Shown in pieces: positions 57,309-57,351 of a stretch of 64,000 nt of DNA; within the stretch, counting starts at the first letter, position 1; each line of letters begins with the position of its first letter. The notes under the pieces were generated by a model. It was not told where the DNA came from. It did not search any database and saw only the letters and a list, made by a program, of their open reading frames with translations. Position numbers and translations under genes: made by a program. This DNA is from an uncultured Gammaproteobacteria bacterium (lineage in GTDB: Bacteria; Pseudomonadota; Gammaproteobacteria; JAIEPX01), in the NCBI GenBank assembly GCA_963725255.1, contig CAVRXV010000012.1, forward strand, positions 14,301-78,300, given 5' to 3'.

Positions 57309-57351
57309 ATCTCAGGTCCATCATCGGCTTTTGCAAGGCCTCTTGAGTTAG
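57309..57351 (+). pseudogene. gmk: orphan copy of the last 13 codons plus stop of gmk
   Basis: 39/43 identical to 53005-53047. Reads SQVHHRLLQGLLS* versus SQVHYRLLQGLLS* in the intact gene. Confidence 0.85.

Follow-up and report, generated by a model that had tools for sequence, protein, structure and literature searches.

A second gmk tail as the junction scar of an inserted block in an uncultured gammaproteobacterium

The guanylate kinase gene gmk of an uncultured gammaproteobacterium (NCBI GenBank assembly GCA_963725255.1, contig CAVRXV010000012.1, positions 14,301 to 78,300 of the forward strand; these 64,000 nucleotides (nt) are the window to which all positions without a contig label refer) is intact and is followed some 4.3 kb downstream by a second copy of its last 43 nt. 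We conclude that this remnant is a junction scar of a known kind, without function, at the edge of a block that was inserted between gmk and rpoZ and is missing in related species. The remnant abuts, to the base, the origin-type end of a rolling-circle element of the ISCR/IS91 family, and it is most likely the displaced native end of gmk. In the history that we favour, with confidence that is roughly balanced, a block from a related lineage, ending at this origin end, entered by recombination anchored in gmk, bringing in a new gene end and displacing the native tail. The gene and its two tails are as follows.

52433..53047, plus strand: gmk (guanylate kinase), intact, 204 amino acids; Pfam PF00625 Guanylate_kin, 1.5e-49; DNA 91% identical to congener G001 along its full 615 nt
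53005..53047, plus strand: tail 1, final 43 nt of the working gene, encoding ...SQVHYRLLQGLLS*; direct repeat family D2; 39/43 against the G001 tail
57309..57351, plus strand: tail 2, the 43-nt gmk remnant, encoding SQVHHRLLQGLLS*; direct repeat family D2; 41/43 against the G001 gmk tail

A repeat search returned the two tails as a direct repeat of 43 nt (53005-53047 versus 57309-57351), 91% identical and spaced by 4304 nt. For comparison we used five other species of the same genus (G001-G005), all uncultured and represented by metagenome-assembled genomes, of which G001 is the nearest (91% in gmk). The remnant is not a chance match, since this genome has no other second gmk match and a single match is all that any of the five congeners shows. 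In G001, G002, G003 and G004, rpoZ comes directly after gmk, at a distance of about 90-150 nt, and there is no second tail; more widely, rpoZ lies within 15-177 nt after gmk at 112 of 149 other gammaproteobacterial loci. Collinearity with G001 (BLAST block, own positions 50621-53057) ends at 53057, 10 nt past the gmk stop, and restarts at 57309, the first base of the remnant. Given that gmk and rpoZ are adjacent in the congeners and that collinearity is broken between 53057 and 57309, a block of ~4.3 kb was inserted here. The DNA 3′ of the two TAG stops is unrelated, as a reading of the sequence alone (the sequence-only reading) had stated; alignment with G001 shows this from the first base on. 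Past the working tail come 10 nt of G001-type spacer and then E88, which is foreign to the locus, and the remnant, after 15 unmatched nt, runs into spacer that is collinear with G001 up to rpoZ.

53048..53057, plus strand: TTATTGACCA, 10 nt directly past the gmk stop, the same as those that open the gmk-rpoZ spacer of G001; end point of collinearity with G001
53058..53147, no strand assigned: E88, a 90-nt segment unique in this genome; 80% relative in G005 contig C66 in an unrelated context; minus-strand terminator-like hairpin at 53139-53121
57352..57366, plus strand: AAAAATATCAAAGAC, 15 nt past the remnant stop, for which the spacers of four congeners show no clear counterpart
57367..57468, plus strand: native gmk-rpoZ spacer, collinear with G001; own 57309-57468 is 83.6% identical over 165 columns
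57469..57714, plus strand: rpoZ; Pfam RNA_pol_Rpb6, 8.8e-21; 94% identity to G001; spoT is next, from 57744

The remnant's left neighbour is the second copy of a 119-nt repeat. This adjacency, already seen in the sequence-only reading, is borne out (the remnant directly follows the copy at 57190-57308); what that reading missed is that the repeat is the origin end of an ISCR/IS91-type element and fixes the first base of the remnant exactly. The origin end (oriIS) of ISCR and IS91 elements lies 3′ of the transposase gene and is the rolling-circle start, and the opposite end (terIS) lies upstream together with the promoter (PMC13393415; PMC6218425). The corresponding features in the window are the following.

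53148..53266, plus strand: w1, solo 119-nt oriIS-type end of an ISCR/IS91-like element (repeat family D1)
56656..57189, plus strand: truncated ISCR/IS91-family transposase, its C-terminal 137 codons (open reading frame (ORF) 56695-57108) plus 3′ untranslated part, recognised by similarity to a full copy
57190..57308, plus strand: w2, oriIS-type end of the ISCR-like remnant; its last base abuts the gmk remnant; terminal motif 17/20 against ISPps1/ISCR8 of pADP-1

The two copies are 98% identical, and there are five copies of the repeat in the genome. Across the genus, 12 copies end on the same last base (...GTGCGTTTGAA..TAT(A/C)TAT) with unrelated flanks beyond it, and this shared terminus gives the sharp boundary of an oriIS end. 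The region 56656-57304 has 80% DNA identity to C11:180026-180675 of the same genome, the 3′ end of a 513-codon ORF, and the transposase remnant is 77% identical to residues 370-513 of that ORF (tblastn). The full copy (C11:180226-181764) has the domains of an HUH Y2 transposase with a zinc-binding domain (Pfam Y2_Tnp, 2.7e-27; Zn_Tnp_IS91, 1.4e-14), and the copy beside gmk comprises the last 137 codons only. In NCBIfam the full copy matches ISCR clade Ia at 6e-71, which is below the model's strict cut-off, and IS91 at 1.3e-27; over its full length it is 39-41% identical to ISPps1/ISCR8-type transposases on plasmids. The 119-nt repeat closes the element 3′ of the transposase stop codon (~120 nt), and the 17/20 match of its terminal motif to ISPps1 of pADP-1 is found at a similar distance from the transposase stop (about 200 nt). 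On these comparisons we identify the repeat as the oriIS-type end of an ISCR/IS91-family rolling-circle element; the gmk remnant starts exactly where it stops.

No terIS with a subterminal palindrome was identified for the element upstream of the transposase gene. The segment E88 was considered as its terIS and rejected, being unique in the genome and absent from the full copies. Neither is there a GTTC/CTTG-type target beside oriIS: the 12 flanks read ATCT, GACT, TTAC, TCAG, CTTA, TTTT, TTAT, CAAG, ACTT, CTAA, TTGT and ATAA, which argues against IS91 proper and leaves ISCR membership standing. To our knowledge, no such target tetranucleotide has been defined for ISCRs. We gave no weight to an IS91-like GTTC termination site located 1 nt before the repeat start in gmk (GAGTTCA|ATC), as its offset is inexact and the origin ends have no tetranucleotide preference. 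A blastn search of a plasmid collection with the oriIS region gave no match.

The two tails differ by four transitions, which in the gmk frame are TCC>TCT (Ser), GTT>GTC (Val), TAT>CAT (Tyr>His) and TTA>TTG (Leu), exactly as first read from the letters: three synonymous third-position changes and one replacement of Tyr by His. From this pattern it had been argued that two gmk alleles diverged as coding sequence. We retain the idea as the best explanation, but the three-of-four argument is not significant by itself, since the probability of at least three synonymous changes among four random substitutions in the gmk tail is 0.04 if all substitutions are equal and 0.16 if only transitions are allowed. 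The neighbouring ISCR ends provide a second comparison. The tails differ at 4 of 43 positions (9.3%) versus 2 of 119 (1.7%) for the two 119-nt ends (Fisher p = 0.043), and the tails therefore predate local duplication or stem from different lineages. When compared with G001, the three silent changes of the four fall on the working tail (14 codons), which is more than the ISCR ends, by the age they imply, would allow. The His of the variant position is also present in the working gmk of congener G002.

These observations can be arranged into the following history. The block would start within the gmk tail or directly behind it and end at 57308, where its right edge is, to the base, an oriIS-type terminus; its left edge would be gmk coding sequence. 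The donor would have been a related lineage with an ISCR-associated island 10 nt downstream of its gmk. The incoming molecule would have begun at the ISCR origin end and reached back to donor gmk by way of the transposase, the cargo and the first ISCR end, and a molecule of this kind is what one-ended rolling-circle transposition would be expected to produce. Elements of the IS91 family start at oriIS and frequently fail to stop at terIS, whereby upstream DNA is co-mobilised as circles (PMC13181058; PMC13393415); one-ended events amount to 1-14% in IS91 relatives, and to about half without the regulator (PMC13181058). On the left side, recombination would have occurred within gmk homology, and on the right side the ISCR end would have been joined 43 nt before the recipient's stop codon. 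As a result, the working gmk would end in a donor-type tail followed by 10 nt of donor spacer, and the native tail would persist as a non-functional scar.

Second tails are also present at other genes of this genome. We screened the whole genome for short direct repeats with one copy forming the 3′ terminus of a long ORF, and judged which copy is native-like against the nearest congener. This gave seven further loci, located on six other contigs.

C7:93626-93692 / 97696-97762: map tail pair; remnant native-like
C1:125032-125076 / 120963-121007: pyrG tail pair; remnant native-like
C8:122292-122366 / 111949-112024: tail pair of a leucine-rich repeat (LRR) protein; remnant native-like, flank also G001-like
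C9:197399-197502 / 195516-195621: ugpQ-like tail pair; remnant native-like, flank also G001-like
C5:260216-260274 / 264138-264196: host-attachment-like tail pair; remnant native-like
C18:39883-39918 / 43902-43937: hydrolase tail pair; working tail native-like
C9:222465-222506 / 221385-221426: O-methyltransferase tail pair; working tail native-like

The second tails sit 1-10 kb downstream of the working 3′ ends, and the DNA between them holds effector-like genes (U-box-like, LRR, ankyrin). The remnant is the G001-like copy at five of the seven loci, with the reverse polarity at the other two; the five agree with the polarity that we favour at gmk. In the particular case of map, the remnant matches G001 at 63 of 67 positions and the working tail at 52 of 67, and the two map tails are 80% identical with a longest run of 14 nt. 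All 12 codons that differ between them (13 base differences) differ silently, for which the probability by chance is below 1e-5. The gene also has an internal breakpoint (max-chi-square p = 0.003), with 23/359 differences to G001 on one side and 69/424 on the other; it lies near C7:93270 within map (C7:92911-93692), and identity to G001 falls there from 94% in the 5′ part to 84% in the 3′ part. This drop is absent when map is compared between G001 and G004, and the breakpoint is therefore not a matter of rate variation. The same gene is split by a frameshift near C7:93030-93180. A multicopy repeat of ~35 nt (...ACAACTCAAGACGCGACGCC...) is found at C8:112025-112061 and many other places; its end is no more than a few bases away from where the LRR remnant begins, and it also occurs at C7:93749-93787, 57 nt past the working map stop.

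One possible generalisation, which we put forward tentatively, is that effector-type islands have repeatedly been acquired from related lineages at no fewer than eight loci (gmk, map, pyrG and five others), each anchored one-sidedly in a conserved gene, with the donor end brought in and the native tail left as a scar. Under this reading the termini of mobile elements (the ISCR end at gmk, the multicopy repeat at LRR) might supply the non-homologous end, in an uncultured, intracellular, Legionellales-like host; we hold this part, too, as a possibility rather than an expectation. If true, second tails would constitute a readable and datable record of island traffic between lineages.

That one gmk tail was imported and the other is the displaced native end was also proposed in the sequence-only reading, and it stands as the best explanation, although which of the two is native at gmk is unprovable. 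Comparison of the tails and flanks with relatives tilts towards the remnant, which is slightly closer to G001 (41/43, versus 39/43 for the working tail and 91% for the whole gene) and stands before the native spacer; on the other side, the 10 nt after the working stop are congener-like. Several findings weigh against our preferred history. Identity to G001 stays uniform across gmk and the genes beside it, and the breakpoint test proposed for gmk gave no significant result (max-chi-square p = 0.07, position nt 95). That the 10 nt past the working stop agree with the G001 spacer would also be expected if the working tail were native, and the 15 nt after the remnant stop are without counterpart in G001 or G003. 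The polarity is reversed at two of the seven other loci (C18 hydrolase, C9 methyltransferase), and an ISCR end stands at the junction of none of the seven, so that it may not be part of a general mechanism. The island's own transposase is truncated, and no ISCR element has been experimentally shown to transpose (PMC6218425). No donor genome was found, the cargo DNA being unmatched in the five congeners, and the metagenome collection yielded no close gmk relatives (best 59% amino-acid identity). Likewise, a search for contigs encoding the exact gmk protein found no record, and a scan of genome contigs gave only the known congeners. Finally, the genome is a draft from an uncultured organism, in 18 contigs and 89.9% complete.

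Two alternatives concern the origin of the second tail itself. With reverse polarity, which we consider rather improbable, the working tail would be native and the inserted block would span 53058-57366, carrying a foreign gmk tail and 15 nt at its far end. The tail and TTATTGACCA are indeed contiguous, with an exact 10-nt match to the G001 spacer and a related start in the G003 spacer; the 15 nt past the remnant stop are unlike any congener spacer, and the C18 hydrolase and C9 methyltransferase loci show the same arrangement. Yet such a block would have no known recombination end at either edge, the donor would need a gmk already split by an ISCR end (so that the problem is merely shifted), the remnant is the copy closer to G001 (41/43 versus 39/43), and five of the seven other loci have the opposite polarity. 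The alternative in which the tail was duplicated locally, upon insertion, and then decayed, the working copy taking only silent changes, seems to us very unlikely. Purifying selection on one copy would make a 3:1 synonymous excess not improbable (p = 0.16, transitions only). However, IS91-family elements make no target duplication (PMC13181058), and this, together with the excess divergence of the tails, the silent changes on the working copy and the His shared with G002, makes a locally duplicated, later decaying tail appear unlikely. In numbers, three silent changes in 14 codons of the working copy stand against 2/119 in the non-coding ISCR ends; the flanks are unrelated from the first base past the stops, and the 13 map differences, all silent, are not decay (p below 1e-5).

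Other alternatives differ in how the block was joined. Campbell-type integration would start from an ISCR circle that contains a gmk tail, the 10 nt, E88, w1, the cargo, the truncated transposase and w2, and would need a single crossover in the 43-nt tail. The donor circle would come from one-ended transposition in a related lineage, with the w2 end joined to the start of the tail, and both present tails would be hybrids. If the crossover fell in the longest identical block, which is formed by the last 18 nt, most of the working tail would be native and the first 25 nt of the remnant would be from the donor. The model has the merit of explaining the ISCR end/tail junction and the tail duplication in one step, and circles from oriIS to the termination point are documented for IS91 (PMC13181058). 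We nevertheless regard it as unlikely, as 43 nt with four mismatches and a longest perfect run of 18 nt are short for RecA-type recombination, and as the map remnant is native-like along its whole length, which a 3′-end crossover in the tail would not give. That three of the four variable sites of the remnant lean to G001 does not separate a circle from the one-sided entry that we prefer. Circle integration is reportedly the usual explanation for the partial duplication of the 3′ conserved segment around ISCR1 and its cargo in complex class 1 integrons (said to be set out by Toleman et al. in 2006). An integrase-driven island, in which the 43 nt would be attL and attR at the gmk 3′ end, the working end would be a replacement tail, the integrase would have been lost and an ISCR would have landed at the edge, is in our estimate quite unlikely. 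Direct repeats of a gene 3′ end, a replacement tail that keeps the frame and empty sites in relatives form the classic signature of such islands, and the same signature recurs at several other genes here, mostly with a foreign working tail. But no recombinase domain is present in any ORF of the island, and the base-exact meeting of the repeat start with the ISCR terminus would be left to chance. Phage_integrase (PF00589) has one match in the 2.8-Mb genome (C9:224625-225176), outside these islands, with no separate XerC/XerD-like matches in that search; serine recombinases were not searched genome-wide. A second gmk tail occurs at only one of the 149 other loci, itself without an integrase, so gmk is not a recurrent site of this kind, and the map breakpoint, well upstream of the repeat, is unexpected from site-specific recombination. 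An assembly artefact, two strain variants misjoined in a metagenome-derived draft, is extremely improbable. The draft state (18 contigs, 89.9% complete) and the single frameshift in the conserved gene map speak for it; the w2 end and the gmk tail share no assembler-length word, and the junction therefore needs spanning reads, and the same structure is seen at seven other loci on six other contigs.

The single second-tail case among the 149 loci (L092, metagenome contig SWCD01012077.1, positions 4791-4937 and 9287-9433) belongs to an unrelated organism. Its repeat is 147 nt long and 91% identical, includes the gmk end and a downstream hairpin, and is present in copies 4.5 kb apart. It flanks Dak1 and Dak2 (dihydroxyacetone kinase) and a histidine-kinase ORF that runs into the second tail.

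The cargo ORFs of the island in the window are as follows.

53588-53845, plus strand: 85 amino acids, from the ORF list; no Pfam match
53755-54639, plus strand: 294 amino acids, orphan; no Pfam and no NCBIfam match; no homologue among 5.8 billion proteins
54639..55562, plus strand: 307 amino acids, from the ORF list; without a recognisable domain in Pfam and NCBIfam
55689..56588, minus strand: 299 amino acids, no domain recognised; a single homologue (47% identity), from a public run assembly

This homologue of the 299-amino-acid ORF, the only one found (L171, Logan SRR18502801 contig, 43-915), lies on a 4.4-kb contig that has no gmk, ISCR or other island sequence. None of the cargo ORFs has a paralogue elsewhere in the genome by tblastn, and a motif apparently common to the gmk-island cargo and a map-island ORF is unsupported for the same reason. 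Among the five congeners, only E88 found a match, in G005:C66; there its relative (L142, G005:C66:5542-5592 region) sits between an erpA-like gene and a transposase fragment. The left end of E88 (53056-53076) forms an imperfect inverted repeat with an internal part of the 119-nt ISCR end (53170-53190). The G+C content of the island is the same as that of its flanks, which is what a donor of similar composition would give. Rfam gave nothing credible for 52000-58500, and no tRNA is nearby. In congener G005, the gap between gmk and rpoZ (L011, G005:C23, about 590-1970) holds a different gene of ~1.4 kb, membrane-protein-like, and this separate gene makes the gmk-rpoZ gap a repeated site of gene gain in the genus.

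The insertion splits rpoZ-spoT from gmk by 4.3 kb, and transcription of rpoZ may now depend on a predicted promoter in or near the ISCR remnant.

57149..57178, plus strand: promoter-like site TTGAGA-18-TAAAAT (10 of 12), from a consensus scan only; it points out of the ISCR remnant to the remnant tail and rpoZ

Outward promoters are present in the oriIS region of ISCR1 (PMC6218425). The scar is also of use in marking where a lineage-specific island begins and ends, one that encodes three orphan and possibly secreted proteins, and it ties an ISCR-type element to gene gain in an uncultured intracellular bacterium, beyond the antibiotic-resistance settings in which ISCRs are known. A more interesting lead than the gmk scar itself is offered by the second tails of gmk, map, pyrG and the other genes taken together, which point to a repeatable uptake of relatives' DNA beside housekeeping genes.

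Among known systems, the one-ended ISCR/IS91 elements (ISCR1, ISPps1/ISCR8 of pADP-1, IS91, IS1294) resemble this case in having an HUH Y2 transposase with Zn_Tnp_IS91 and Y2_Tnp (here in the full copy), an origin-end motif ~200 nt past the transposase stop, cargo beside the origin end, and truncated copies that keep the origin-proximal part. The partial duplication of host DNA, with a copy on either side of the element and its cargo, recalls ISCRs in complex class 1 integrons. Unlike the known ISCRs, the transposase here is only ~40% identical to theirs, no terIS was identified for the element, and its origin ends show no GTTC/CTTG target. The duplicated DNA is the end of an essential chromosomal housekeeping gene, and not an integron segment, and in place of resistance genes the cargo consists of orphan, effector-like ORFs next to a truncated transposase. 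Islands whose integrases restore gene 3′ ends are similar in their flanking 3′-end direct repeats, in the relatives without an island and in a working end that derives from incoming DNA; they differ in that no integrase is in or near the gmk island, the repeat edge coincides with an ISCR terminus, and the gmk tail is not a recurrent site (149 loci). A further parallel is homology-facilitated illegitimate recombination during the uptake of foreign DNA, reportedly described by de Vries and Wackernagel in 2002. The proposed likeness lies in a one-sided homology anchor, another end that is joined without homology, and a foreign allele that replaces part of the anchor gene. At gmk the junction is a transposon terminus in place of microhomology, and it falls inside the anchor gene, so that the tail is duplicated and no DNA is deleted. 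The map locus, with a breakpoint inside the gene and a native remnant, fits homology-facilitated illegitimate recombination.

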